IMG/VR virus record: IMGVR_UViG_3300025288_000013
Location: 1-64,000 of that record
Length of the DNA stretch: 64,000 nucleotides
Source: a virus
Reading direction: 5' to 3' (one strand)
Below are positions 1-64,000 of this stretch, piece after piece (the first letter of the stretch is position 1; each line of letters opens with the position of its first letter). Both the position numbers and the translations under genes were made by a program. The notes under the pieces were generated by a model that did no database searches, was not told where the DNA came from, and was given only the letters and a program-made list of their open reading frames with translations.

Positions 1-1045
1 GTCTTAATTGATTGTGTGAAGTCCACCCATGAGCAAATACTAATGAAAGGATTTCTTGGTTAATTGATTGTGCCAACTCTTCGGTTCCAATAATGTCACC
101 CATTTCACGCAAGTCCACATCCTCCTCCATTAACATATCCTGATACATTTCACGTGTAAAAGCGATTTTAACTTTGTGGGTTTGTGCACTAAAATTACTA
201 CTCCATTTTCTAAAACCAACGGTTCTGTAATCTCTTGCCTCGCCAACTTGTCTTGAATTACCTTTATGAATTGTTGAACCATCATGTCCACCAGTTCTAT
301 AAACGTCTGTATCATTTAAACCAGCTGCAGCAAACCCCTGTATGTGGTTCATGTTAGCAGAAGTATAATCAACAGTTGTTGGATCAAAACCAAAGAAATT
401 ACCAATACTTGTATAAATACCAGCAGTAGCAGTCCCTAACATTGTTTCAATTGTATCCGTAGCAAAAGCAGGATCAACCGCACCAGTTCTAAATACGGCG
501 TAACCAAGAGATCTGTCCAATCCAATATAAGTCACAGCAAGTATTTGATTACCAGCATTTGCATCAGTTATATTGTAAGAAGTACCAACAACTAATGCTG
601 TGGGTGCACCTGTAACAGCCAATTTTACAACAAATATTGATGGTAAGTTTGCATTGGTACTTGTACCATTGATAACTCCACCGGCATAAACTGGCTCCAA
701 AATATTAACTTGCAAATTTGATTTTGTCATTTGCTTACTATGTATGATATCAAATCCAACCGTAGTTGCATAAGCATCAACAAATAAACCAAACAATTCA
801 TCAAACATTTCGCCTGATCCTCTTGATTTGTCACCAGCATTGTTTGGGTTATTACCAAAACTAAAAGTACCTCTACCAACAGTATTACCTGGCGTAGCAG
901 CCTCTAAGAATTTTTTACGTACTAAAGCTGCTTCAACCATTCTTTGTAATTTTGATGGTGTAACTTTTATACCTCTTTCGTCTAATCTTGCAGAGATTTT
1001 ACTCTTATAAGTTTCGACCATTTTTTGTTTAATTATTCTGTTCAT
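1..1045 (-). CDS. Major capsid protein, T4 gp23-like (5' part; runs off the window start)
   Basis: Not in the ORF track because it is truncated. Manual translation from ATG at 1045 gives MNRIIKQKMVE...FLEAATPGNTVGRG...TVGFDIIHSKQM...YAGG; near the window start it reads AQTHKVKIAFTREMYQDML...EELAQSINQEIL, resembling the gp23 motif A-x-SR-x-LKA-x-Y-x-x-E-x-x-QDL...EINREV. It lies directly downstream of the prohead protease. Confidence 0.85.
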   Translation of the reverse strand, partial: MNRIIKQKMVETYKSKISARLDERGIKVTPSKLQRMVEAALVRKKFLEAATPGNTVGRGTFSFGNNPNNAGDKSRGSGEMFDELFGLFVDAYATTVGFDIIHSKQMTKSNLQVNILEPVYAGGVINGTSTNANLPSIFVVKLAVTGAPTALVVGTSYNITDANAGNQILAVTYIGLDRSLGYAVFRTGAVDPAFATDTIETMLGTATAGIYTSIGNFFGFDPTTVDYTSANMNHIQGFAAAGLNDTDVYRTGGHDGSTIHKGNSRQVGEARDYRTVGFRKWSSNFSAQTHKVKIAFTREMYQDMLMEEDVDLREMGDIIGTEELAQSINQEILSLVFAHGWTSHNQLR

Positions 1046-1081: not shown

Positions 1082-4000
1082 TTATATTTTAGAACCATAT
1101 TCGTTTATTACCTCAACAATTTCTGTATCATTTAACATACCTACAGCTTCTAAAATTTCTTTTTGATTACTTTTGTCCAAATTACCAAACTTAATCAAAG
1201 ATTCTGAATCTTCTTTCAACATTTCTAACTCTGGATTTTCATCAAGTATTTTTTGTGATGCGTTAGCAACAGCAACCACATCAGCATTTTCTTTAAGTAT
1301 TCTAAGGGTTTTATTTCTTAATGAATTGTTTGATTCTTGTTCCAACAACCTTATGTGTTTTGATGCTGTTTCACAAAATTTTGACACTCTTTCAAGTTCT
1401 GATTCCATCATAGCAATCTTTTCAGCTTGTTCTGTTAACAGTGTGTTTACATTTTTTCTGTAAAAATCTGCACCTTTTTGAGTGATTTCATAATTAAATG
1501 GTACACCGCCACTAAGCAAACCATCTTTTACCAATTTATCATAGTCGTTTTTTAATTTTTTAATTCCATCACCTTTAACACCGAACCACTCAATTAAACC
1601 GCTCATGTGCCTACCGTTGGTACTAATGATTGGTGCCAGCAATTTAATTGCTGAACCAATATCTTCTGGTGATTCTGTTAATAATGTGTCACTATCTTCG
1701 GCTTCTGTTTCAACAATATAAACCTCGCCAGTTTCGCCATTTTCAACCATAATCATTTCTTCATTTTCTGAAATAACTGTGTAATCAATATTGTCCTGAT
1801 CATCTGTTATACCATGAATTTCAATACTATTTTCGTCAGTTTCAACCATCGTAACCTCTTCATCAGTTTCAACCTCTTCAATAGAGTCATCGAGATTAGC
1901 CATTTCTTCATTTTCAAACAATTTTATAGCATTTGCTCTTCTTGATTTACTTCTTGAAACTGATTCAATAAGTTTTTTGACTGATTTCACTTTTTTGGAT
2001 TCTGTTAATGCTGATTTTGAAATTTCTTTAATTGATTTGAAGTTGTTTTCTTCAGCATAATCAAAGAATGCTTTTCTTGAATCTTTATCCATCATTTTGA
2101 ACAAGTCATTCATTTGTTTTCTCTGACCATTAATAAGACTTTCTTCTATATAATCAAAAAATTCAATATCAGTCGTGAAATCATGATCTTTTGCTAAATC
2201 TTTTGCTGATTTTGATTCTGTTAACATATCACATTCGTTTTCAATCATAACTTTTTTACCATAAGTATCAAAAACCCAATCTTTGAGATCGACATAATCT
2301 TGATCCATGCCTTTAACAATTTCACCTTTATCAGATATAATTTGTAAAGATTTGGCAAAAGTGTTGGATATTCTATCAATGATGCCAGCCTTTTTGCCCT
2401 CTCTTACTTCCATATCAGCCCATTTAACAACACCAGTAGGTAATTTTGATGAAAAATCATTTTCAGTTAATTTTTTATTATCCATCAATTCTTTGAACTG
2501 ATCAAGTGACAATTTAATTGATTTTCCATCTTTGTCTAATATTCTGTTAGTACCATCATACTTAGATAAAGTGTATTCACCAGAACCAACAACAGTACCA
2601 TCTGACAATGTTTTATCTTTTGGTATACGTATTTTATCACCAACTGTTTCAGTTAATTTTATTGATTCATCATCTGTTTCAAACAATTTTTCTGTTTTAT
2701 CAGTTAATCCGCCAAGTTTTTTTAATTCAGCCTTAGCACCATCAGCATCTTTTCTAATTTTGTCAGCCTTATCATTATCACCATCTGCAAGAGCATTTCT
2801 CCAAGCATTAGCCATCCTTGATAATTTTTCTCTTAGGTTAAGAATTTCTGTATCATTAGCATTTTCTGTTAGTTCTTCAGTTTCCACAACAAGTATGTCA
2901 CCTGTTTCTTCGTTTTCAACCATTAATGTTTGATCGCCAAATTCATCAACTTCTGTTTCAGAAATAACTGAATAAGTTGTTGGTTCTTCATTAACACCAA
3001 CGATTTCAACGTGATTTTCATCGGTTTCAGTTATTTCAACTGTATCATTGATTTCAACATCTTCAAGAGTTTTATCAAGTTTAGCTATTTCTTCTGATTC
3101 AAACAATCTAATGGCTTTACCTCTTTTAGAAATGTTTTTTGACACAGATTCAACAAGACGTTTTACAGATTTTACTTTGATTGTTTTCATGTTTTCTGTT
3201 AGTTTTACCGATTCAAACAAAAATTCATAAAAATCTGGATCAATATTCCAAGCATTTTTAATATATTTTAAAACTTCATCGGATGACATTTGCTCTATAT
3301 TTTCATTATCATAATCACGAGCATCCATTTCTGATCTCAAAGCCTTTTTTATTTTTTCTCCGTCTTCACCATATTTTTTTAGAAATTTATCAAGCGTATT
3401 AGAATTTTCCGTTAATTTTATCATTTTTTCTAAACCTTTGTTGATATTTTCTTTCTTAATTTTTATGTCACCATTGGCAACAATAAAGAAATCAACACCA
3501 TTTTTAAAATTTTTTTCCAAATAATCAATTAATTCTTCAAATTTCTTGAATTTATCAATATCATGTGTTGGTTTATTGATGTGAATAGTATCTTCCATAG
3601 AGTTTTCTGTTAATTTTAATAAATCACTTAGTTCTAACTCCCCTGGAGAATCATCTTTATATATATCATCCCCATCTGGGTCTGACCAAATTTTTACTTT
3701 GTTTCCGTTTTTGTCAATAAAACTAAATTCTTTGCTGTTTTCAATATCTTTTGACGCTAATAGTTCGCTAATAGTTTTACCAACCTTTGATTTTTTTATG
3801 GTTTCATAAGCTTTGTCTATTGTTGATTCGGTTAATTCGGTTTTATCAAGATTTTCCAATTCATCAACAATTTCCATTTGTAAAGTTTCCTTTTCTTCTT
3901 CAGACATAGAATCATTTTCAACCAATTTTCTGTATTTTCTGTTGATTTTAACAGTTTCTAACAAGGCTTTTGTATTATTTGATTTTTTAGCTTTTAATCT

Positions 4001-5269
4001 TATTGATTCCAACAATTCTTTAACTTCTTCTTCTGATTTTGGTTCTTCGTTTTCAAACATGTGACCTAAACCAACCAATTCTGAAACAACTAAATCAGTC
4101 AGTTCAATGTCACCACCTTTGCTTTTTATATAATCTTCCAAATCTTTAACTTTTTTTATTTTGTCAGCCAATTCTTTGTCAGCCACAATTTCTTTTGCGA
4201 TTCCTTTTTCAACGCTATCAGTTGATCCAGTTTCAGTCAATTTTTTGTCTAAAAGTTCAATTTCATCAATTATTTTTTCCTCTTCAGCGGTTTTTTCCTC
4301 TTCAGGCATAGAGTTATTTTCAACCAATTTTTTGTATCTTGTTTTGACACGTTTTGCTTCAAAAAGCACTTTCATGTTTTTCACAGTTTTTGCCTTTCCT
4401 CTAATAGATTCAATCATTTCCAATAATGGATCATCTTCGTCTTCAACTATTTCCCAAGATTCCTTGTTTTCGTTATACATAACTTCAGTTTTAGTACCAT
4501 CGATGTCAATCTTAGAAAACCATGCACCGTTATTTTTATGGGGTTTTTCCAATAAATTGTGTTCAGCACCATTAATTATTATGGCTTCATTTCCATTATA
4601 TTCTGCTATATTCATTTCTGTTAATTTTTGGTTATCTATTTTATTTTTTGGTACAATTTTTACTGATTCTGTTAAATTTTCTCCGCTCTTAGCATCATAA
4701 ACTCTTAATGTTGTACCACCCATACCACCAGATCCAACAACATCATATGTATAAAGCGTATCAAGATAAGCCTCACTTGTATCTTCGTTTAAATATCCTA
4801 TTGCTCTTGAAGAAATTGAAAGAATCCCACCATTTTCAAGAACAACTATTAAATCATAACCACCGCCAATAAGTGTTGGTATTATGGTTAATCTAATATA
4901 ACAACAATCTTCTTCTTCATCATACCACAATTTATTTATGATACCACAAATTTCTTTTGTTTTTGCTATGAAATCATCTTCCTCGTTTGGGTGGTCGGCT
5001 GATGAAAATAATCTACCATCTTCGGCAAGTTTGGCTATTCTATCAAATTCTTCAAGATAGCTTTCTTTATTGTAAAATCTTTCATTTGACGACCACCCAT
5101 TTTTAAAATCAATACATTTTCCCTCAAGAACGACAGAATCCTTGTTCTTTAAGTTTGAATTGACTAAATTAGCTGATTCGATAAGTTTTTTAGTAACTTT
5201 CTTCTTGTCTACAACTTTTAAACTAGCACCATCTTCGAAAAGTATTGTAATTTTTTTTGATTTGCTCAT
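1082..5269 (-). CDS. Prohead protease (T4 gp21-like) fused to a ~1200-aa acidic scaffold/core polyprotein
   Basis: N-terminal ~190 aa has NERFY, SADHP, ISSRAIG and YTYDVV (gp21/U9 His-Ser-Asp motifs). The remainder is acidic with many LTE/LVE/LFE motifs and internal duplications. Confidence 0.85.
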   Translation of the reverse strand: MSKSKKITILFEDGASLKVVDKKKVTKKLIESANLVNSNLKNKDSVVLEGKCIDFKNGWSSNERFYNKESYLEEFDRIAKLAEDGRLFSSADHPNEEDDFIAKTKEICGIINKLWYDEEEDCCYIRLTIIPTLIGGGYDLIVVLENGGILSISSRAIGYLNEDTSEAYLDTLYTYDVVGSGGMGGTTLRVYDAKSGENLTESVKIVPKNKIDNQKLTEMNIAEYNGNEAIIINGAEHNLLEKPHKNNGAWFSKIDIDGTKTEVMYNENKESWEIVEDEDDPLLEMIESIRGKAKTVKNMKVLFEAKRVKTRYKKLVENNSMPEEEKTAEEEKIIDEIELLDKKLTETGSTDSVEKGIAKEIVADKELADKIKKVKDLEDYIKSKGGDIELTDLVVSELVGLGHMFENEEPKSEEEVKELLESIRLKAKKSNNTKALLETVKINRKYRKLVENDSMSEEEKETLQMEIVDELENLDKTELTESTIDKAYETIKKSKVGKTISELLASKDIENSKEFSFIDKNGNKVKIWSDPDGDDIYKDDSPGELELSDLLKLTENSMEDTIHINKPTHDIDKFKKFEELIDYLEKNFKNGVDFFIVANGDIKIKKENINKGLEKMIKLTENSNTLDKFLKKYGEDGEKIKKALRSEMDARDYDNENIEQMSSDEVLKYIKNAWNIDPDFYEFLFESVKLTENMKTIKVKSVKRLVESVSKNISKRGKAIRLFESEEIAKLDKTLEDVEINDTVEITETDENHVEIVGVNEEPTTYSVISETEVDEFGDQTLMVENEETGDILVVETEELTENANDTEILNLREKLSRMANAWRNALADGDNDKADKIRKDADGAKAELKKLGGLTDKTEKLFETDDESIKLTETVGDKIRIPKDKTLSDGTVVGSGEYTLSKYDGTNRILDKDGKSIKLSLDQFKELMDNKKLTENDFSSKLPTGVVKWADMEVREGKKAGIIDRISNTFAKSLQIISDKGEIVKGMDQDYVDLKDWVFDTYGKKVMIENECDMLTESKSAKDLAKDHDFTTDIEFFDYIEESLINGQRKQMNDLFKMMDKDSRKAFFDYAEENNFKSIKEISKSALTESKKVKSVKKLIESVSRSKSRRANAIKLFENEEMANLDDSIEEVETDEEVTMVETDENSIEIHGITDDQDNIDYTVISENEEMIMVENGETGEVYIVETEAEDSDTLLTESPEDIGSAIKLLAPIISTNGRHMSGLIEWFGVKGDGIKKLKNDYDKLVKDGLLSGGVPFNYEITQKGADFYRKNVNTLLTEQAEKIAMMESELERVSKFCETASKHIRLLEQESNNSLRNKTLRILKENADVVAVANASQKILDENPELEMLKEDSESLIKFGNLDKSNQKEILEAVGMLNDTEIVEVINEYGSKI

Positions 5270-5300
5270 TCTTGATTATATTTTCAGTATTTATTGTAGT

Positions 5301-5329
5301 TGTAACAATATTATTTGCCTATGGTTTTT
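5301..5329 (+). promoter_or_regulatory. TGTAACAA-N15-GTT promoter (HD hydrolase/clamp loader operon)
   Basis: One of 13 exact-spacing copies. Confidence 0.8.
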
Positions 5330-5349
5330 ATAAAACAAAATTCAATTCT

Positions 5350-5955
5350 ATGAATAAAAATGTTCTTAAGGGTATCCATAATACAAATCCTGATTTATGC
5401 AAGGATGGTGTAATAACATGTGGTAATCTTATGCCATATGATCTTATTAATTTTGATAAAAGTATGGTAGATATGGATTTTATGATAAATTCTGTATCAA
5501 AAATAAACAGATACAATGGTCACAACAAACACAAAAACGGTTATTCTGTGGCACAACATTCGCACATAATGGCTATGTCTGCTTTAATGTGCTATGGTGA
5601 CATAGAACTGGCAAGACAATGTTTGTTCCATGATTTACCAGAGGCATATGTTATGGACATGGTAAAACCCATGAAAAATCTAATGGGAAAAACATATGCT
5701 GATGTGGAAAAACATGTAGAAAAAGTTGTCTATAAATTTTTAGATTTACCAGAAAAATTGGATTGTAGAGTCAAAGAAATAGACAAAAATATGGCACAAT
5801 TCGAAATGAGTATAATTTTACATGATTCAGAAAATGTTTATGGTTCGTTTGATATTTGGTCAGCAAAAAAATCAAGAATGGAATTTTCAAGAATGGTAGT
5901 TATGTTACTTGAATTATGCAAATACCAAGATAAAAATATAGTTAATTTAAAATAA
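5350..5955 (+). CDS. HD-domain deoxynucleotide phosphohydrolase (YfdR/YfbR/DatZ-like)
   Basis: Motifs INRYNGH, YSVAQHS, LFHDLPEAYVMDMVKPMK and KEIDK. Start moved to ATG 5350, downstream of the TGTAACAA-N15-GTT site. Confidence 0.85.
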   Translation: MNKNVLKGIHNTNPDLCKDGVITCGNLMPYDLINFDKSMVDMDFMINSVSKINRYNGHNKHKNGYSVAQHSHIMAMSALMCYGDIELARQCLFHDLPEAYVMDMVKPMKNLMGKTYADVEKHVEKVVYKFLDLPEKLDCRVKEIDKNMAQFEMSIILHDSENVYGSFDIWSAKKSRMEFSRMVVMLLELCKYQDKNIVNLK

Positions 5956-5958
5956 AAC

Positions 5959-6933
5959 ATGGAAACAGTAACCAAAAATAGATTGTATATAGATAAATTG
6001 TTCACAGAAACGTTTGAACCAAAAGATTACAAAAATTTCGTATTACCAAAAAGAATAAAAAGCCATTTCCCAAATGGCGAGATTCTCAACAATAGTTTGC
6101 TTTGTGGAACCGCTGGTTGTGGTAAATCGTCTTTTGCTAAGTATCTTGGTAGAATTAATAATAATAATTTTTATTATTTGAATTCATCACTTGACACATC
6201 AAAAGGTATTCTTGAAGAGGGTAGCGAATTACACACATTTTGTTCAACATTTTCATTCGAGGGCAAAAGAAAAGTTGTATTGTTTGATGAAATTGACGGT
6301 GTATCAGCAAGTTTTTTTAATGCATTGAAAGGTTTTATGGATACATTCAATAAGGTTAGATTTATTGCCACAACGAACCATATAGAAAACATACCCGCAC
6401 CAATTTTATCAAGATTTTCTGTTATAGATTACAATTTTGAAAGTAAAGAAGAGGAGCAAGAGCAATTTGATGGATATAAGATAAGAATTTATAAAATAAT
6501 GACACATCTTGGTATAGCCGTTGATTCAAAGAATTTGAATGAGTTATGTAAGCGTTATTTTCCAGATTTTAGATCAAGTTTACAATTGTTACAAAGGCTA
6601 ATAAACAACAACATAAAAACAATAGACGAAAATGTTGTTAACAGAAAAAGTTTTGAACATAACGAACTTTATTCTTTAATATTAAATGCAACAACCACAG
6701 ACAATAGGCACATACACACAGAACTAACGTCAATATCGAATCCACTATATGCTATTCATACAATGGACAATGACTTTATGGATTACCTTGAGAAAAATAA
6801 TGCGTCTAAAGTCATTCACTATGGCGATATAATAATAACAATAGCTAAATACAATAACATGGTCAACAATAGAGTTGATCCAATGATATGTTTGAAAGCA
6901 TTAGTATTTGAATTAATAAAAATTGTTAGATAA
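5959..6933 (+). CDS. Sliding-clamp loader AAA+ subunit (T4 gp44/RFC-like)
   Basis: Walker A GTAGCGKS, Walker B VVLFDEID, sensor ATTN, PILSRF and FPDFR. Confidence 0.9.
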   Translation: METVTKNRLYIDKLFTETFEPKDYKNFVLPKRIKSHFPNGEILNNSLLCGTAGCGKSSFAKYLGRINNNNFYYLNSSLDTSKGILEEGSELHTFCSTFSFEGKRKVVLFDEIDGVSASFFNALKGFMDTFNKVRFIATTNHIENIPAPILSRFSVIDYNFESKEEEQEQFDGYKIRIYKIMTHLGIAVDSKNLNELCKRYFPDFRSSLQLLQRLINNNIKTIDENVVNRKSFEHNELYSLILNATTTDNRHIHTELTSISNPLYAIHTMDNDFMDYLEKNNASKVIHYGDIIITIAKYNNMVNNRVDPMICLKALVFELIKIVR

Positions 6934-12433: not shown

Positions 12434-12742
12434 TCAAAGATTTGCTTCTATTTCTTCCTTTATTTTCTTAGCATCTGATACTAAGAAATCTTTAGCAATT
12501 ATTTTCTGGCTACCAACACTATGTATAATAATATCTGATTTGATAATTCTTCTGTCTATTTCAACGCCAGATATTTTGCTATAGGGCATAAAAGTTTCAT
12601 CAACACCGATCAAATGTTTGTTACGTTTTTTGTATGTAACGCCCCTGTTACCAATTTCCAATCTATCTGGCGTAAGAATATCACCACCAACATAGAACTT
12701 TGATGAATAACTTGATTCGAATAATGGTATAAGTTTTTTCAT
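12434..12742 (-). CDS. Bacterial PH-domain-like protein with MKKLIPLFES leader (putative internal head protein)
   Basis: Beta-rich pattern with C-terminal helix (MPYSKISGVEI...DAKKIKEEIE); leader shared with the neighbouring gene. Confidence 0.55.
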   Translation of the reverse strand: MKKLIPLFESSYSSKFYVGGDILTPDRLEIGNRGVTYKKRNKHLIGVDETFMPYSKISGVEIDRRIIKSDIIIHSVGSQKIIAKDFLVSDAKKIKEEIEANL

Positions 12743-60208: not shown

Positions 60209-61288
60209 TTACTGTCTTTCACCATTTACATAAGATTCAACAGTGTTATCAGAATCATAAAAATCATCTAATTTATAATGTCCGTTTTTAGTTTTATTTA
60301 TGTGTTGAATAACACCACCCTCTTTGGTTGTTATTTCTATGGCTTCTTTTCTAACTTCGTCCAAATTGTTATTGTCTGATTCGTTCATTTTTATCAGTTC
60401 GTTCAACGGTTCATAATCTTCAGCATAATCACCCATAAAATCTTTCTTAAACAATACAGATAAGAATGCTCTCATATCCCCCTCATTATCGGTGCACCAA
60501 CTATCATTTTTGCTTATTATTTTTAACGCTCTATCTGTGTACTTTTTATCATATGTTGAACTAACAAAATTTTTGAAAGCATCTTTGTCCTTTTTGTTGT
60601 CTAAACAATACCACCCAGCATTTTGTTTTATTGACCTTAATAATGAATCAACAAAATTGCTATCGTTTTCCAACAAATCTTCATATTTTTCACCAGAACC
60701 CTTTGATTTGTCTGTTTGATTTGATGGATCGTTACCAAATGATGCTTCACCTCTGCCTGGAACAGTTGAAGTGGCTGATTCTGATTCAACCATTTTGGTA
60801 ATATCTTTCAATTTATTAATATCTGATTCTGTTAATTTTATCCCTCTGTTAATTTTGTTACCAATACTATCATTCTCAAGAATTTTACCAATTGCATTTT
60901 TAAAATTCGTTTCATATTTTTTCCTTAATCTCATTGACACAGGTTTATATGATTCTTTTAATTCAACCAATGCCTTTTTGGCTTCATCACCAGTTTTACC
61001 AATCAATTCTTCAGTTCCATCAAGTTCCATTTCTTCAAATAATGAAACCTTATCAGATAGTTTTGATACGTCATCAAGCATTTGAAGAAAATCATCTGTT
61101 GATTTACCATCATAATCTTCACCAAATAGATCAAAATCTTTATTATCACGTGCAAACACATTCAGCTTTCCATTAAAATTTTCAAGCATTTCATAGGTAA
61201 TATCTTTTTCACTAAATACTTTACCTCTCACATTGTTTAGTGTGAATAGTTTTGCTAATTCTTCTTTTGTTATTGATTTTGGTGTCAT
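60209..61288 (-). CDS. Putative head-associated protein with LxE sites and a capsid N-arm-like segment
   Basis: LTES, MVES, LLEN and MNES sites; GRGEASFGNDPSNQTDKSKGSGE is similar to the MCP N-terminus. Confidence 0.6.
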   Translation of the reverse strand: MTPKSITKEELAKLFTLNNVRGKVFSEKDITYEMLENFNGKLNVFARDNKDFDLFGEDYDGKSTDDFLQMLDDVSKLSDKVSLFEEMELDGTEELIGKTGDEAKKALVELKESYKPVSMRLRKKYETNFKNAIGKILENDSIGNKINRGIKLTESDINKLKDITKMVESESATSTVPGRGEASFGNDPSNQTDKSKGSGEKYEDLLENDSNFVDSLLRSIKQNAGWYCLDNKKDKDAFKNFVSSTYDKKYTDRALKIISKNDSWCTDNEGDMRAFLSVLFKKDFMGDYAEDYEPLNELIKMNESDNNNLDEVRKEAIEITTKEGGVIQHINKTKNGHYKLDDFYDSDNTVESYVNGERQ

Positions 61289-61305: not shown

Positions 61306-61334
61306 ATAAACTTTTAAATTTGGTTTTTGTTACA
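61306..61334 (-). promoter_or_regulatory. TGTAACAA-N15-GTT promoter
   Basis: Exact motif upstream of the ORF starting at 61288. Confidence 0.75.
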
Positions 61335-63968
61335 TTAATCTTTTAATAATTCATCAGCTAGATCACCAATGCCTTTTATCAACGGATTGTTTTCAAATGC
61401 TTTAACGATTTTATCTTTCTTTTCTTTCAAATCATCAATAGCCAATTTTATCTTTTCTTTAGCTGTTGGGTCTTCTTCACCAGCCAATTCTTTCTTTAAA
61501 TCTTCTATTTCTTTGTCAAGTTTTAACTTATCTTCAAGATTTTTTATAACCAACTCCTCTTTTTCTATATTAGTTTTTAACTTTTCAATAGATTCTTCAT
61601 TGGTTTCATCAGCTAATTTTTGTTTAAGTTCAAGTATATCTTCTTTTGATTCTTTGATTCTTTGTTCAATTTTAACCAATTTTTCCTCACGTTTTTTAAC
61701 TGCCTCTGAATCTTCTGCCTCTGTTAATTCTTTATTTTCAAATACCATACTTGCTAATTCCTTGTATCTATCAACGTTACCAAAAATGATATCATAATTA
61801 CCAAGTTGTTCAGGTTTCACCCAAGCATATTCAGAATGTTCTTCTGACAAAACAACCTCTTCACTATTTGATAAACCAGAATAATAGTGGGAAACGCTAC
61901 CATCATTTGTGAATTCTTTTAATCGCTTCACATCGCTAAATGTTAGCCCAGATTCCTCATTTGCCTCACGAATAGCAGCTTCTTCAGTTGTTTCACCGTC
62001 TTCAACTTTACCACCAGCTAAACCCCATTGGTTCGGTGCAACTTCTTCATCAACTGTTCTTTTTAATAACAAAAGTTCGCCCTTATCATTATAAATGACC
62101 ATATCAGCATAAGTTTTTATCTCTCCAACACCATTTTCATTTTCAACTAATTTCTTTAATATACCACTTATTTTTGTTTGACACGATTCAGTTAATTTAC
62201 CAAATTTGGTTGACGAACCCTCTTTCATTTCTATTAACGCATCATATACTTCGTTAACATCTTCGTTTTCTGATAATTCTGATATGAGTTGTAAATCTTC
62301 ATCGTCTAATTGATTAACAATTTCAATTTCTGATACAATTTCTGTTGGTTCAACGATTTCGTTTTCTACCAATGGCGTCTTAAAAATCACGCCAGTCATT
62401 GTGTCGTAATCCCATATACCAATAAAGTTACCATCTTGGTCTTTAAACCAATCTTGGTCACCTCTTGATTCTATGCTACCATCACCAACATAAGATAAAC
62501 CTTGTGAAAATGAATTAAAGTTATCATATTTGTCACCACCAAGTTTTGATATGTCTTTAAATGATTCAGTCAATTTTGCTGATTCTAATACCTTATGTTT
62601 TTTTAATAATTCAATATCATCAACAGTCACAGGAAACCCAAATCCGTCACTTAATGTTTTCATAAGTTTCTTTTCATTACTTGCAGCATCAGTAACTTGT
62701 GGTATCAGTTTACCATACTGATCAAGTATTGCTTTGTCTGTGTTGGTTCCATCTTCAAACCCCCCCAAAACCTTTATAATTTTAAAGCCAATTGAATTCT
62801 TAAGATCACCATCACTTTCAGTTAATTTTGCTGATTCTGTTAGTTCAACAATAACTTCAACATCTTCTTTATCATCATAAATTGATAGAGTTTTGTTTTC
62901 AACATCAAAATCCAATTCAAAATCGCCAAAGTCTGATCGCCATGATTCTTTCGTACCATATTTTTTGAATAACGATTTTATACCATCAATATCTTTTTTC
63001 CCAAAATGTAATCTTGAATTATCATCTTCAATTGATGAATTTTTTTCTATATGTTTTATAATTTTATCAATTGGTGTTGATTCACTTTCAGTTAATTTTG
63101 ATTCAACAAATCTCAAATCTGAAGATGGCACATTAAGTTTGTTTTCATTTTCTATTTCTAGTTCATTTTCAGTTAACTTGTTTATTGGTGTTACAGAATA
63201 TTTGTTTTCATCTATGGCAAATACGTCATAATCTTTACCATCAACTCCTAATTGTACACCTGCACTACCGTTTATTGGTGTCCCCAATATCATTGATAAT
63301 TCAGAACCACTAAACATTTTTTTGACCTTATCTTTATCAACAACAATTTCTTTACTTTCAGTTAACTTTTTTGGTTTAAAATGAATTGGGTGTGCCTTTT
63401 CCTTAGTATTTTTATCAATTATCCAATTATCTTTAGTTATTTCACCGATTTCAAACGGTTCACCAAGAACTGTACCAACATCACCAACTTTTAAACCACG
63501 TCCTTTGATATTGGTTTCTCTTTGGTGATTATCAGCATAGCCCTCATTCAAAACCGTTAAATAATCAAATGCTATTGTTTCTACACCAAGAAATTTTCCA
63601 TTTTTGTCAAACACAGACACATCAACATCATAATCGTTTTGACCAGTTTTATCAAGTCTATCAACAATACCATAATAATCTGGATATTTTTTATCACCTA
63701 TAAGAATTTTAACTTTGTCATTAACTTTTGGTAATACTGCTTCAGTTAGTTTATCTACACCGTTCACTTCAACATCACCAATTTTATAAGTACCATTTTC
63801 TTTCAGTGCTTTTATAATTTTGTTGCTTTCAACAAGCATAACAAATTTACCTTTTTGTATTTTGGCTGCTTCCGTTAGTCCAACCACTTCAACCACTTCA
63901 GATATAGTCATTTCATTTTCATTATCTAAGTTTGATAAAATCTGTGCAACAGTTGAATCATTGCTCAT
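61335..63968 (-). CDS. LTE-punctuated acidic polyprotein with an embedded Nudix hydrolase domain
   Basis: Nudix box GGKVEDGETTEEAAIREANEESGL; about 10 LTE motifs; C-terminal coiled coil. Confidence 0.75.
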   Translation of the reverse strand: MSNDSTVAQILSNLDNENEMTISEVVEVVGLTEAAKIQKGKFVMLVESNKIIKALKENGTYKIGDVEVNGVDKLTEAVLPKVNDKVKILIGDKKYPDYYGIVDRLDKTGQNDYDVDVSVFDKNGKFLGVETIAFDYLTVLNEGYADNHQRETNIKGRGLKVGDVGTVLGEPFEIGEITKDNWIIDKNTKEKAHPIHFKPKKLTESKEIVVDKDKVKKMFSGSELSMILGTPINGSAGVQLGVDGKDYDVFAIDENKYSVTPINKLTENELEIENENKLNVPSSDLRFVESKLTESESTPIDKIIKHIEKNSSIEDDNSRLHFGKKDIDGIKSLFKKYGTKESWRSDFGDFELDFDVENKTLSIYDDKEDVEVIVELTESAKLTESDGDLKNSIGFKIIKVLGGFEDGTNTDKAILDQYGKLIPQVTDAASNEKKLMKTLSDGFGFPVTVDDIELLKKHKVLESAKLTESFKDISKLGGDKYDNFNSFSQGLSYVGDGSIESRGDQDWFKDQDGNFIGIWDYDTMTGVIFKTPLVENEIVEPTEIVSEIEIVNQLDDEDLQLISELSENEDVNEVYDALIEMKEGSSTKFGKLTESCQTKISGILKKLVENENGVGEIKTYADMVIYNDKGELLLLKRTVDEEVAPNQWGLAGGKVEDGETTEEAAIREANEESGLTFSDVKRLKEFTNDGSVSHYYSGLSNSEEVVLSEEHSEYAWVKPEQLGNYDIIFGNVDRYKELASMVFENKELTEAEDSEAVKKREEKLVKIEQRIKESKEDILELKQKLADETNEESIEKLKTNIEKEELVIKNLEDKLKLDKEIEDLKKELAGEEDPTAKEKIKLAIDDLKEKKDKIVKAFENNPLIKGIGDLADELLKD

Positions 63969-64000
63969 TTCTAAATGTTGATAAATGTGATCTCTGAATT

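Follow-up and report, generated by a model that had tools for sequence, protein, structure and literature searches.

The window analysed here is a stretch of 64,000 nucleotides (IMG/VR record IMGVR_UViG_3300025288_000013, positions 1 to 64,000) from an uncultured relative of a Flavobacterium phage. Near its start lies a gene, P0001, in which a protease region (residues 1-201) is followed by about 1200 residues of small modules split by candidate cut sites, and the capsid gene starts 36 nt after it. Neither the promoter TGTAAC-N17-GTTTWT nor TATAAATA occurs inside the ORF on its own strand, and no nested start was found there in the sequence, translation starts being a matter for RNA or protein data. 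No description of such a protease-polyprotein gene was found in the literature searched. The gene and its N-terminal part are laid out as follows (an arrow marks a candidate cut).

1082..5269 (-): whole gene of the protease-polyprotein P0001, an open ORF of 1395 aa encoding a 159-kDa chain
5177..5269 (-): leader at the N-terminus (residues 1-31), candidate sites ILFE12 and LIE31↓S
4676..5176 (-): T4 gp21-type (S77) serine protease domain, residues 32-198, by profile, AlphaFold and Foldseek
4991..4993 (-): catalytic His93 in the motif ADHP, near-invariant in 32 relatives and invariant in 8
4811..4813 (-): catalytic Ser153 in the motif ISSRAIG, invariant in both sets of relatives
4742..4744 (-): Asp176, probable third residue of the triad, invariant in both sets of relatives
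4616..4675 (-): release linker with the first two candidate sites by motif position, NLTE201↓S and KLTE218↓M

A profile match, a Foldseek match and a conserved His93/Ser153/Asp176 triad identify residues 1-201 as a T4 gp21-type protease. Such a domain had been proposed in an earlier note made from the letters alone. Whole-protein Pfam and PHROGs searches did not detect it, and the single-sequence Pfam scores were weak (14 bits against a cut-off of 27 for PF03420 (S77), 19.6 against 23.4 for PF20034 (S80)), but the family profile and the predicted fold then confirmed it. The profile, built from 32 relatives, matches T4 gp21 (PDB 5JBL) with E 5.3e-14. The AlphaFold model of the domain (pLDDT 79, core >90) is predicted to have the assemblin-like fold of T4 gp21, matching 5JBL in Foldseek with E 1.1e-8, probability 1.00 and TM 0.79 on the target, the runner-up reaching E 0.03 only. 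Both Pfam families are present in the precomputed annotation of relatives, and gene 209 of Chryseobacterium phage MA9V-2 stands above the PF03420 cut-off with 27.3 bits. His93 and Ser153 align to positions at which 5JBL reads Ala (GELNAPP and VASRGLG) and the family profile has His and Ser. The assignment of Asp176 to the triad is probable, and its distance of 23 residues from Ser153 resembles S153/D178 of SPN3US gp245, which have been aligned to the His/Ser/Asp triad of T4 (PMC5694885). The linker behind the domain is disordered in the model (pLDDT <50 at 182-193 and 200-210). In the leader, L10, E12, L29 and E31 are invariant across 8 close relatives. Its sequence, MSKSKKITILFE, resembles the starts of a second polyprotein (MNKKITVKLLE) and of the capsid protein (MNRIIKQKMVE), and it may have a targeting or propeptide role. 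By sequence resemblance, leader-like starts were seen at residue 1 of P0001, at residue 1 of the second polyprotein and at residue 1 of two small ORFs.

The most conspicuous feature of the chain is the tripeptide LTE, of which the earlier note had counted about 14. There are exactly 14 (residues 199, 216, 344, 479, 553, 619, 690, 800, 872, 934, 1016, 1088, 1197 and 1278) against 0.91 +/- 0.94 expected, and 0 of 2000 composition-matched shuffles reached this number. KLTE occurs 7 times (0.10 expected) and LTE[STN] 12 times (0.17 expected), the commonest form being K-L-T-E↓S/N. The LVEN/LFES/LIES-type sites claimed alongside were also in excess (L[VFI]E[SN], 8 against 0.35 expected), as was any L-x-E (38 against 15.6 +/- 3.6). 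The codons at the LTE sites vary (TTA/CTA/TTG; ACA/ACT/ACC/ACG), and the signal is therefore one of the peptide and not a DNA word. It is likely that LTE behaves as the site of the P0001 protease, with cleavage itself predicted from the sequence.

The LTE sites divide the chain behind the protease into pieces of 17, 128, 135, 74, 66, 71, 110, 72, 62, 82, 72, 109, 81 and 115 aa, eight of which measure 62-82 aa, in agreement with the segments of 50-90 aa described earlier.

3827..4615 (-): residues 219-481, two charged segments with seven extra Phi-x-E sites and an internal duplication
3194..3826 (-): three orphan modules, 482-555, 556-621 and 622-692, each with a KLTE↓N end, no homologues
2864..3193 (-): basic-then-very-acidic module, copy 1, 693-802, net charge -17, duplicate of 1091-1199
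2216..2863 (-): three further orphan modules, 803-874, 875-936 and 937-1018, LTE-bounded, no homologues
2000..2215 (-): module 1019-1090, common to relatives, matching P0176 and P0028
1673..1999 (-): basic-then-very-acidic module, copy 2, 1091-1199, net charge -22, duplicate of 693-802
1430..1672 (-): module 1200-1280, common to P0176 (64% identity, phmmer E 3e-30)
1085..1429 (-): conserved C-terminal helical domain, 1281-1395, also the extreme C-terminus of P0176, P0003 and P0028

The tail proved to be modular, shuffled and partly orphan. No tail segment matched a family in Pfam or PHROGs. Modules 482-555, 556-621 and 622-692 had no match in Pfam, PHROGs, relatives or 5.8 billion proteins, and they lack inner sites except for one, 6 residues before a boundary. 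Likewise, no homologues of 803-874, 875-936 and 937-1018 were found in Pfam, PHROGs, relatives (phmmer) or protein databases, and two of these carry a second site 8-10 residues ahead of the boundary. Other parts are duplicated or shared. Residues 279-344 match 413-477 (phmmer self-match, E 3e-13), and residues 226-312 are also found in the relative P0003. Module 693-802 is a duplicate of 1091-1199 (E 1.3e-22) and occurs in P0176 as well; each copy holds six inner sites, and from residue 694 onward the first begins with a leader-like MKTIKVKSVKRLVE↓S, resembling MKTI..LYE↓A of gp153/gp154 in phage PAU. Highly acidic, duplicated and site-rich segments of this kind look more like a disposable core or scaffold than cargo. 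Module 1019-1090 has a counterpart in P0176 (E 3e-32) and is present twice in P0028 (E 4e-14 for either copy). Module 1200-1280 sits elsewhere along the P0176 chain than in P0001, which indicates that module order is shuffled between relatives; the comparison across related phages that the earlier note had called for found modules shared with P0176, P0003 and P0028 and a shuffled module order. The C-terminal propeptide of SPN3US gp245 offers an analogy that makes the C-terminal domain a candidate for the core- or shell-binding (scaffold) end.

The motif is not confined to P0001, and three further proteins of the genome carry it or a related site.

2..1045 (-): gp23-like major capsid protein, the next gene downstream, cut by the contig end (Pfam Gp23, E 7.8e-8)
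61335..64000, running to 64529 beyond the window (-): second LTE-punctuated polyprotein, 1064 aa, Nudix-bearing, identified by its LTE excess
60209..61288 (-): 359-aa protein in which the sites KLTE↓S and MVE↓S precede a duplicate of the capsid N-terminal arm, from the motif scan

The second polyprotein has 10 LTE against 0.5 expected, and its NUDIX domain (PF00293, E 3e-20) lies between LTE781 and LTE937. It is the only other protein of the 110-kb contig in which LTE is enriched, the rest of the contig being at background (11 against about 8.5 expected). Across the 24 LTE sites, Lys is at P4 in 14 and Ser or Asn at P1' in 17. The capsid protein is 42% identical to that of Flavobacterium phage MaF61, and its candidate maturation site KKFLE48↓A, which aligns with RKIYE↓S (MaF61) and RKLFE↓S (L004), is of the LFE/FLE class that also occurs in the P0001 tail.

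The protease is carried by at least 275 protein clusters, and the phage-record matches have mainly Bacteroidota hosts or are uncultured huge phages (Lak, PAU, Chryseobacterium and Flavobacterium phages). Family statistics were drawn from 150 listed clusters, 129 of which are at least 450 aa long. The matched protease stretch is N-terminal in all listed relatives but P0158, and 34 of the listed long clusters have an individually significant [LIVM]-X-E excess. Relatives of similar length, from independent contigs and two isolates, measure 1394, 1404, 1446, 1540, 1667, 1765 and 1207 aa. The middle residue X clusters on the protease tree, with 9 changes where shuffles gave 12.9 (none of 200 did as well). 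In MaF61, [LM]NE occurs 15 times in ORF140 (0.9 expected) and 5 times in the Nudix protein ORF123 (0.6 expected), with 16 elsewhere against about 23 expected. In MA9V-2, Phi-NE[SAG] occurs 17 times in gene 209 (0.66 expected) and 12 times in gene 236 (0.54 expected), with two sites in the capsid protein N-terminus. Thus, in three phages the motif excess is limited to two proteins per genome. A domain, DUF5856, is recognised in the tail of MA9V-2 gene 209.

We consider it probable that P0001 is gp21, core scaffold and internal proteins fused as one self-processing polyprotein. This is supported by the identity of the protease, the motif excess, its peptide-level nature and its restriction to two proteins, by the replication in MaF61 and MA9V-2, the clustering of the middle residue on the protease tree and the unfused counterpart in PAU, and by the site class of the capsid protein, the recognised domains in relatives' tails (DUF5856) and the T4 precedent. 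Against it stand the forced equality of protease and tail, unlike in T4, with no nested start or internal TATAAATA found, the single-sequence S77 score below its cut-off, the clearance role of multiple sites in giant-phage propeptides (PMC10052503) and the completeness of the contig (only about 64%), since the missing part may hold a scaffold gene of its own. The earlier note had proposed a self-processing scaffold with cargo. The self-processing part has held up well, with the protease, the motif excess, the second head polyprotein and the lineage-linked middle residue in its favour, but the cargo part is less well supported, as no segment matched Pfam or PHROGs and some segments are scaffold-like. 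Structure prediction, suggested at the same time, gave the protease fold but was uninformative for the tail (single-sequence prediction, pLDDT 37.7), and because of this and the missing family matches folded cargo in P0001 stays hypothetical.

On this reading, full-length P0001 would be a late product that is assembled into the prohead core inside the gp23-like shell, steered there by the conserved C-terminal domain and perhaps by the N-terminal leader. On shell closure the protease would cut after Glu at K-L-T-E↓S/N and (K/R)-x-L-F-E↓S, and the motif statistics and the disordered linker suggest that it would free itself first, at LTE201/LTE218. It would then chop its own tail into at least 14 pieces of 2-15 kDa and, judging from the shared motifs, also cut the Nudix polyprotein, the capsid propeptide (FLE48↓A) and the 359-aa arm-copy protein. 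Least certain is the last step, in which the site-dense, very acidic duplicated segments may be degraded and lost like T4 gp22, while the compact, site-free modules of 62-82 aa (IPI/IPII-sized) may remain with the DNA and, along with the Nudix enzyme, be ejected into the host. Probably, then, this one gene serves to build, fill and chop up the capsid core, the cutting being predicted.

An unlikely but serious alternative is that the whole tail is core or scaffold, with sites only for clearance and nothing retained or delivered. The composition of the tail (Glu 13%, Lys 12%, Asp 9%), the duplicated segments at net charge -17 and -22 with 6 extra sites each, the tail modules without function recognisable in Pfam and PHROGs and the label 'putative prohead scaffold' on MaF61 ORF140 would all suit it, and multiple cutting for clearance is known from T4 gp22/gp67/gp68 and from the long SPN3US propeptides (PMC9026906, PMC10052503, PMC5694885). 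However, eight modules of 62-82 aa are free of internal sites or have one only at the edge, gaps that a design for clearance would not leave; pieces of 7-9 kDa match the size of the retained internal proteins of T4 (PMC9026906). Unlike in a structural scaffold, the two ends of the chain are conserved, whereas the modules between them are orphan and shuffled. Moreover, DUF5856 is found in relatives' tails, a Nudix enzyme is flanked by the same sites in the sister polyprotein, and among the genes of the PAU counterpart region is one annotated as an internal capsid protein.

It is very unlikely that the LTE words are a short linear motif with another role, such as shell or portal contacts or cutting by a host protease. 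The motif is short, and Lys at P4 and Ser/Asn at P1' would fit a binding motif equally, with cutting at LTE predicted only; but every studied gp21-type protease has cleavage sites of this form and polarity, a hydrophobic-x-Glu word with a small residue behind it, LTE is present in the disordered linker right after the protease domain, a related site lies where removal of the capsid propeptide is expected, and the middle residue tracks the protease phylogeny. Least credible of all is an excess that arose by repeated descent of a linker or module carrying the word without selection, since the duplications (279-344 with 413-477, and 693-802 with 1091-1199) cover at most 3 of the 14 sites, whereas the other 11 lie between segments of no detectable mutual similarity, the site codons differ, and the same excess is seen in the second protein, which is unrelated, and in other phages, where the middle residue is another one.

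Beyond the fused, self-processing polyprotein, we raise with some reserve the possibility that the protease gene is a 'cargo train', in which small proteins are inserted between the conserved protease head and core-binding tail by flanking them with the word. Capsids would receive equal numbers of changing orphan ejection proteins, which would probably act against host defences or in take-over, enzymes such as Nudix would travel on a second train, and the middle residue (N, T, A, S) would change with the protease, all substrates of the genome in step. The fusion is not a single oddity, given the size of its family and its occurrence in large phages. If the pieces stay in the head, they would offer a ready list of candidate ejected proteins, natural modular cargo loading relevant to engineered phage delivery, and a clean system for joint change of protease and substrate specificity (Asn to Thr at P2). 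MaF61 and MA9V-2 are cultivable, which makes the polyprotein directly testable there.

MaF61 ORF140 (1404 aa) and MA9V-2 gene 209 (1207 aa) have the architecture of P0001, and both phages, like the source genome, have a second motif-rich giant protein. Gene 209, a 'prohead core protein serine protease', lies directly upstream of the capsid gene as P0001 does, whereas ORF140 lies several genes upstream. Their motifs are [LM]NE (MaF61) and [IL]NE (MA9V-2) instead of LTE, and their tails have almost no sequence in common with P0001, the MaF61 alignment covering residues 29-188 only. The papers on both phages leave the gene undiscussed. The same protease family and a related capsid protein occur in genes 151-156 of Sphingomonas (Sphingobacterium) phage PAU in the order found here (protease, core and internal proteins, capsid protein), which by analogy points to a scaffold function of the P0001 tail. 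In PAU these are separate genes, namely protease gp151 (246 aa), scaffold gp152 (277 aa), gp153, internal capsid protein gp154 and gp155; gp152-154 each have their own MKT...LYE↓A leader, whereas P0001 lacks the intervening stops and starts.

Capsid proteases on one chain with protease-released assembly parts, as proposed here, are known from herpesvirus UL26/UL26.5, lambda C/Nu3 and P2 gpO. P0001 has the protease at the N-terminus, a conserved C-terminal domain and an adjoining capsid gene; these fusions, in contrast, are cut at one or two sites and come with a nested product that is scaffold alone, of which none was found for P0001. Polyvalent proteins (Iyer et al. 2017) also combine a capsid protease with effector parts that it releases, but their assemblin-like peptidase is reported always at the C-terminus (PMC5512222). 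P0001 does not fit this class, with its peptidase in residues 1-201 and no recognisable effector domain in the tail, only the sister polyprotein having one (Nudix). The diverged gp21 relatives phiKZ gp175 (S80) and SPN3US gp245 cut after Glu, as predicted for P0001, have substrates with several redundant sites, and self-cleave a C-terminal propeptide thought to target the enzyme to the core, that of gp245 being the source of our analogy for the C-terminal domain (PMC7411985). However, their propeptide is about 64 residues long against about 1200 in P0001, they use the motif A/S/G-x-E, their ejection proteins have genes of their own, and in giant phages the repeated sites of long propeptides are there for clearance and free no cargo (PMC10052503). 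Another close parallel is the prohead core of T4. P0001 shares with gp21 (S77, PDB 5JBL) the fold and the His/Ser/Asp triad, and it resembles the T4 core in that cutting is predicted behind the Glu of a hydrophobic-x-Glu word, that leader-like starts end with such a word, that a gp23-like capsid protein adjoins its gene and that the predicted pieces are of IPI/IPII size. The freeing of leader-tagged internal proteins by gp21 is the textbook case of protein loading into a phage head. T4 uses about eight separate genes in very different amounts (gp21, gp22/gp67/gp68, IPI-III and Alt), its scaffold far outnumbering its protease, whereas P0001 has the protease and its substrate on one chain and hence in equal numbers, prefers K-L-T-E↓S/N with R-L-F-E↓S as a second class, and has no module like a T4 protein. 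In T4, cleavage is at L/I-X-E, capsid-targeting leaders have 10 residues, the internal proteins are about 8, 10 and 20 kDa, and gp22/gp67/gp68 are cut into many pieces (PMC9026906). The protease-polyprotein fusion is a variation on this known type of head maturation, in which the internal-protein scheme of T4 has apparently collapsed into one self-cutting gene.

The polyprotein frame lies at one end of the window, which covers the initial 64 kb of a viral contig 110,222 bp long, with an estimated completeness of 64%. The frame is followed, 36 nt on, by the gene for a gp23-like major capsid protein, truncated by the contig end. Among isolates the nearest is Flavobacterium phage MaF61, a myovirus of 167.8 kb whose capsid measures about 110 nm (PMC13269007). 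Divergent from the polyprotein, at 5257-6933 on the plus strand, lie genes for an HD-domain phosphohydrolase-like protein and a gp44-like clamp loader, so that replication genes directly adjoin the head module, as in MaF61. The gene and the promoter-like words discussed here are as follows.

1082..5269, minus strand: protease-polyprotein ORF, open for 1395 codons
1079-1086, minus strand: TATAAATA, an exact T4 late-promoter word some 27 nt ahead of the start of the capsid gene and overlapping the polyprotein stop codon
5282-5289, minus strand: near-match to the T4 late-promoter word, AATAAATA, about 12 nt upstream of the polyprotein ATG
5301-5329, plus strand: copy of TGTAAC-N17-GTTTWT, facing the gene divergent from the polyprotein
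61306-61334, minus strand: copy of TGTAAC-N17-GTTTWT, preceding the gene of a 359-aa protein that carries a copy of the capsid protein arm

The T4 late-promoter word shows no clear window-wide enrichment (19 against 14.5 expected). TGTAAC-N17-GTTTWT with at most one mismatch occurs 17 times in the window against 2.5 expected, mostly at gene boundaries. Neither a nested promoter nor a nested start was found within the polyprotein ORF.

With the whole protein, Pfam and PHROGs gave no match for protease or tail, and residues 1-210 alone gave only sub-threshold matches to Peptidase_S80 and Peptidase_S77; phmmer with the N-terminal domain found no match among PDB sequences, and the ESM Atlas no usable one. 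Searched in full with HMMER, 1.84 billion representatives gave 275 related clusters. The gp21-like N-terminal protease claimed in the earlier note is supported by a profile of 32 related clusters, which matches T4 gp21 (PDB 5JBL; E 5.3e-14), and by Foldseek, in which the predicted model (pLDDT 79, core above 90) matches the same structure (E 1.1e-8, TM 0.79) with no other match near. His93, Ser153 and Asp176 are invariant or almost so among relatives, in keeping with the His/Ser/Asp triad known from gp21 and SPN3US gp245 (PMC5694885). His93 and Ser153 align with the two positions that read Ala in the 5JBL chain; at these the family profile shows His and Ser, respectively. The predicted model turns disordered exactly at the first LTE, residues 199-201.

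The count of about 14 LTE motifs in the earlier note was exact, and the excess that it had asked to see set against composition-matched shuffles is pronounced: 14 LTE against 0.91 expected, with none of 2000 shuffles as high. Expectations from composition are likewise exceeded by KLTE (7 against 0.10), LTE[STN] (12 against 0.17), L[VFI]E[SN] (8 against 0.35) and any L-x-E (38 against 15.6). Because 14 of the 17 Leu-Thr dipeptides lie inside the motif itself, an expectation from a first-order Markov model is circular for this protein. Over 24 LTE sites from this protein and the second polyprotein described below, P4 is Lys in 14, and Leu-Thr-Glu is followed by Ser, Asn, Ala or Thr in 22. Since codons vary among the sites, the constraint acts on the peptide, and the reading as a DNA-level repeat was rejected. 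The pieces between LTE sites span 17-135 aa, and eight of them measure 62-82 aa, in agreement with the segments of 50-90 aa noticed before.

That LTE is the site of the protease itself is suggested by its distribution. On the same contig enrichment extends to a single further protein, an ORF of 1064 aa (10 against 0.5 expected); the remaining 114 ORFs hold 11 LTE in total against about 8.5. In MaF61 the counterpart ORF140 (1404 aa) has no LTE excess and instead carries 15 [LM]NE against 0.9 expected, the Nudix protein ORF123 carries 5 against 0.6, and elsewhere in the genome the count does not exceed expectation. In Chryseobacterium phage MA9V-2, hydrophobic-N-E-[SAG] occurs 17 times against 0.66 in gene 209 (1207 aa, immediately upstream of the capsid gene), 12 times against 0.54 in gene 236, a second giant protein, and twice within the N-terminal 60 residues of the capsid protein. 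The three genome-wide scans thus give exactly two motif-rich giant proteins in each phage and a middle residue that is constant inside a genome and different between genomes, a co-variation tested across these three genomes. The family survey covered 150 listed representatives of the 275 clusters; P0158 is the only one whose matched protease stretch is not N-terminal, and 129 are at least 450 aa long. In 34 of these 129 the [LIVM]-X-E excess is individually significant after correction; 20 of the 34 have Asn as X, 9 have Ala and 2 have Ser, and the 1395-aa protein alone has Thr. X clusters on the protease-domain tree (9 changes against 12.9 in shuffles, matched by 0 of 200), and the 1395-aa protein is nested in a well-supported clade of giants of which the others use Asn. 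A second site class, (K/R)-x-L-F-E↓S (arrow, predicted cut), is common to the 1395-aa protein and its relatives and resembles the expected removal point of the capsid propeptide (KKFLE↓A here, RKIYE↓S in MaF61, RKLFE↓S at the locus L004 of a relative).

Judged by sequence comparison, the middle of the tail is a mosaic between two conserved ends. The protease and segment 219-346 are common to P0003, the closest long relative, and the last 115 residues to P0003, P0028 and P0176, in every case at the extreme C-terminus. Module 1019-1090 is present once in P0176 and twice in P0028, and module 1200-1280 is present in P0176 at another position. For six modules (482-692, 803-1018) Pfam, PHROGs and homologue searches detected no relatives; per-segment Pfam and PHROGs matches on the tail were at chance level only, and a word-based homologue search with the tail returned P0176 alone and nothing for residues 482-1090. 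A scan of a viral contig collection with the single protein gave no close relative, and one with a narrower alignment gave one locus, L004. P0176, the only other LTE-using relative found, has 759 aa on a 5-kb metagenome contig; its NeuB-like N-terminus (PF03102) runs directly into an LTE-punctuated tail 42-64% identical to three modules of the 1395-aa protein (64% for module 1200-1280), and given that start it is probably a chimeric assembly. In P0003 the modules are parted six times by a conserved double-site linker, [LI]NE-GFHHLT(K/R)RKKM(N/K)E↓S, and likewise several boundaries in the 1395-aa protein have a second site 6-10 residues ahead of LTE. A single-sequence AlphaFold model of residues 197-1395 reached a pLDDT of only 37.7, and its folds were not used; in the secondary structure of this low-confidence model there is no more than a hint that LTE sites mostly fall outside helices and strands.

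Other putative substrates and internal proteins are encoded elsewhere on the contig.

61335-64000, on to 64529 of the contig (L016:335-3529), minus strand: second LTE polyprotein, 1064 aa
60209-61288, minus strand: 359-aa arm-copy protein, in which a copy of the capsid N-terminal arm (GRG..SFGN.P.N..DKS.GSGE) comes after KLTE↓S and MVE↓S
12434-12742, minus strand: 102-aa ORF with a leader-like start ending in the protease word, MKKLIPLFE↓S
78513-79217 of the contig, minus strand: 234-aa ORF with a leader-like start ending in the protease word, MKNRSKHIIVLLE↓A

The second polyprotein contains a Nudix domain (PF00293, E 3e-20) bracketed by LTE781 and LTE937, and its counterparts are MaF61 ORF123 (924 aa) and MA9V-2 gene 236 (1044 aa). 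No Nudix gene was found in the 22.8-kb record of L004, too short a stretch for absence to count, and PHROGs gave no separate scaffold gene near the second polyprotein, on a contig only 64% complete. The 102-aa and 234-aa ORFs are candidate separately encoded internal proteins.

We propose, from the T4 facts (PMC9026906) and the propeptide of giant-phage proteases (PMC7411985), that the full-length protein would enter the core via its conserved C-terminal end, that the protease would release itself at LTE201/218, and that it would then cut its own tail, the Nudix polyprotein, the capsid propeptide and the arm-copy protein. These first steps rest on strong statistics. As to the fate of the tail pieces, we infer that site-dense acidic parts would be cleared from the prohead and compact site-free modules of 62-82 aa would stay as internal proteins. 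The main rival is that the entire tail is disposable scaffold, as its charge and extra sites would suit: the duplicated module is basic at first, then becomes extremely acidic (net -17 and -22) and has six extra sites, and redundant sites are known to be used for clearance (PMC10052503). Against this rival speak the long site-free modules of the tail, which are orphan and shuffled between conserved ends, the Nudix enzyme of the sister polyprotein, and recognised domains in the tails of relatives. In MA9V-2 gene 209 (L014:19979-23602) DUF5856 (PF19174, E 1.7e-12) lies between INE/LNE sites and is, by its profile match, a recognised domain within a protease-linked polyprotein. It is unlikely that the word is a binding motif, since its middle residue tracks the protease tree and a related site is placed at the expected removal point of the capsid propeptide. 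An excess by descent is also unlikely, as the internal duplications (279-344 with 413-477, E 3e-13; 693-802 with 1091-1199, E 1e-22) explain at most 3 of the 14 sites. A head-packaged Nudix enzyme, if true, would be worth its own study.

The gp21 family, Glu-specific sites, leader-targeted internal proteins, protease-scaffold fusions and polyvalent proteins are already known. In the literature searched we found no description of an N-terminal gp21-type protease with a tail of about 1200 residues and at least 14 sites together with a second polyprotein sharing a lineage-specific word, and the papers on MaF61 and MA9V-2 do not discuss the protease-polyprotein gene. According to a 2026 preprint, CBASS immunity is activated through proteolysis by phage protease enzymes (PMC12991175); prohead proteases of the gp21-type family may therefore be sensed by host defence. 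Giant-phage proteases remove their own C-terminal propeptide of about 64 residues, which is probably core-targeting (PMC7411985). In polyvalent proteins Iyer et al. described assemblin-like peptidases only at C-termini (PMC5512222), whereas here the protease is N-terminal. In T4, the word recognised by gp21 is L/I-X-E, with the cut after Glu; gp22, gp67 and gp68 are broken into numerous pieces, which exit the prohead. IPI-III (about 8, 10 and 20 kDa), each in about 300 copies, and Alt are brought in by a 10-residue leader, lose it and are retained for ejection (PMC9026906). The 1395-aa protein differs from T4 in that its fusion implies protease and tail in equal numbers. In phage PAU the same locus encodes the protease (246 aa), scaffold, gp153, the 'internal capsid protein' gp154, gp155 and then the capsid protein as separate genes, in contrast to the fused gene here. 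Copy 1 of the duplicated module starts at residue 694 with MKTIKVKSVKRLVE↓S, closely resembling the starts of PAU gp153 and gp154, MKTI(N/S)(Q/K)LYE↓A. This likeness and the unfused PAU locus we take to mean that the fused gene would have arisen through fusion of leader-tagged core genes with that of the protease.
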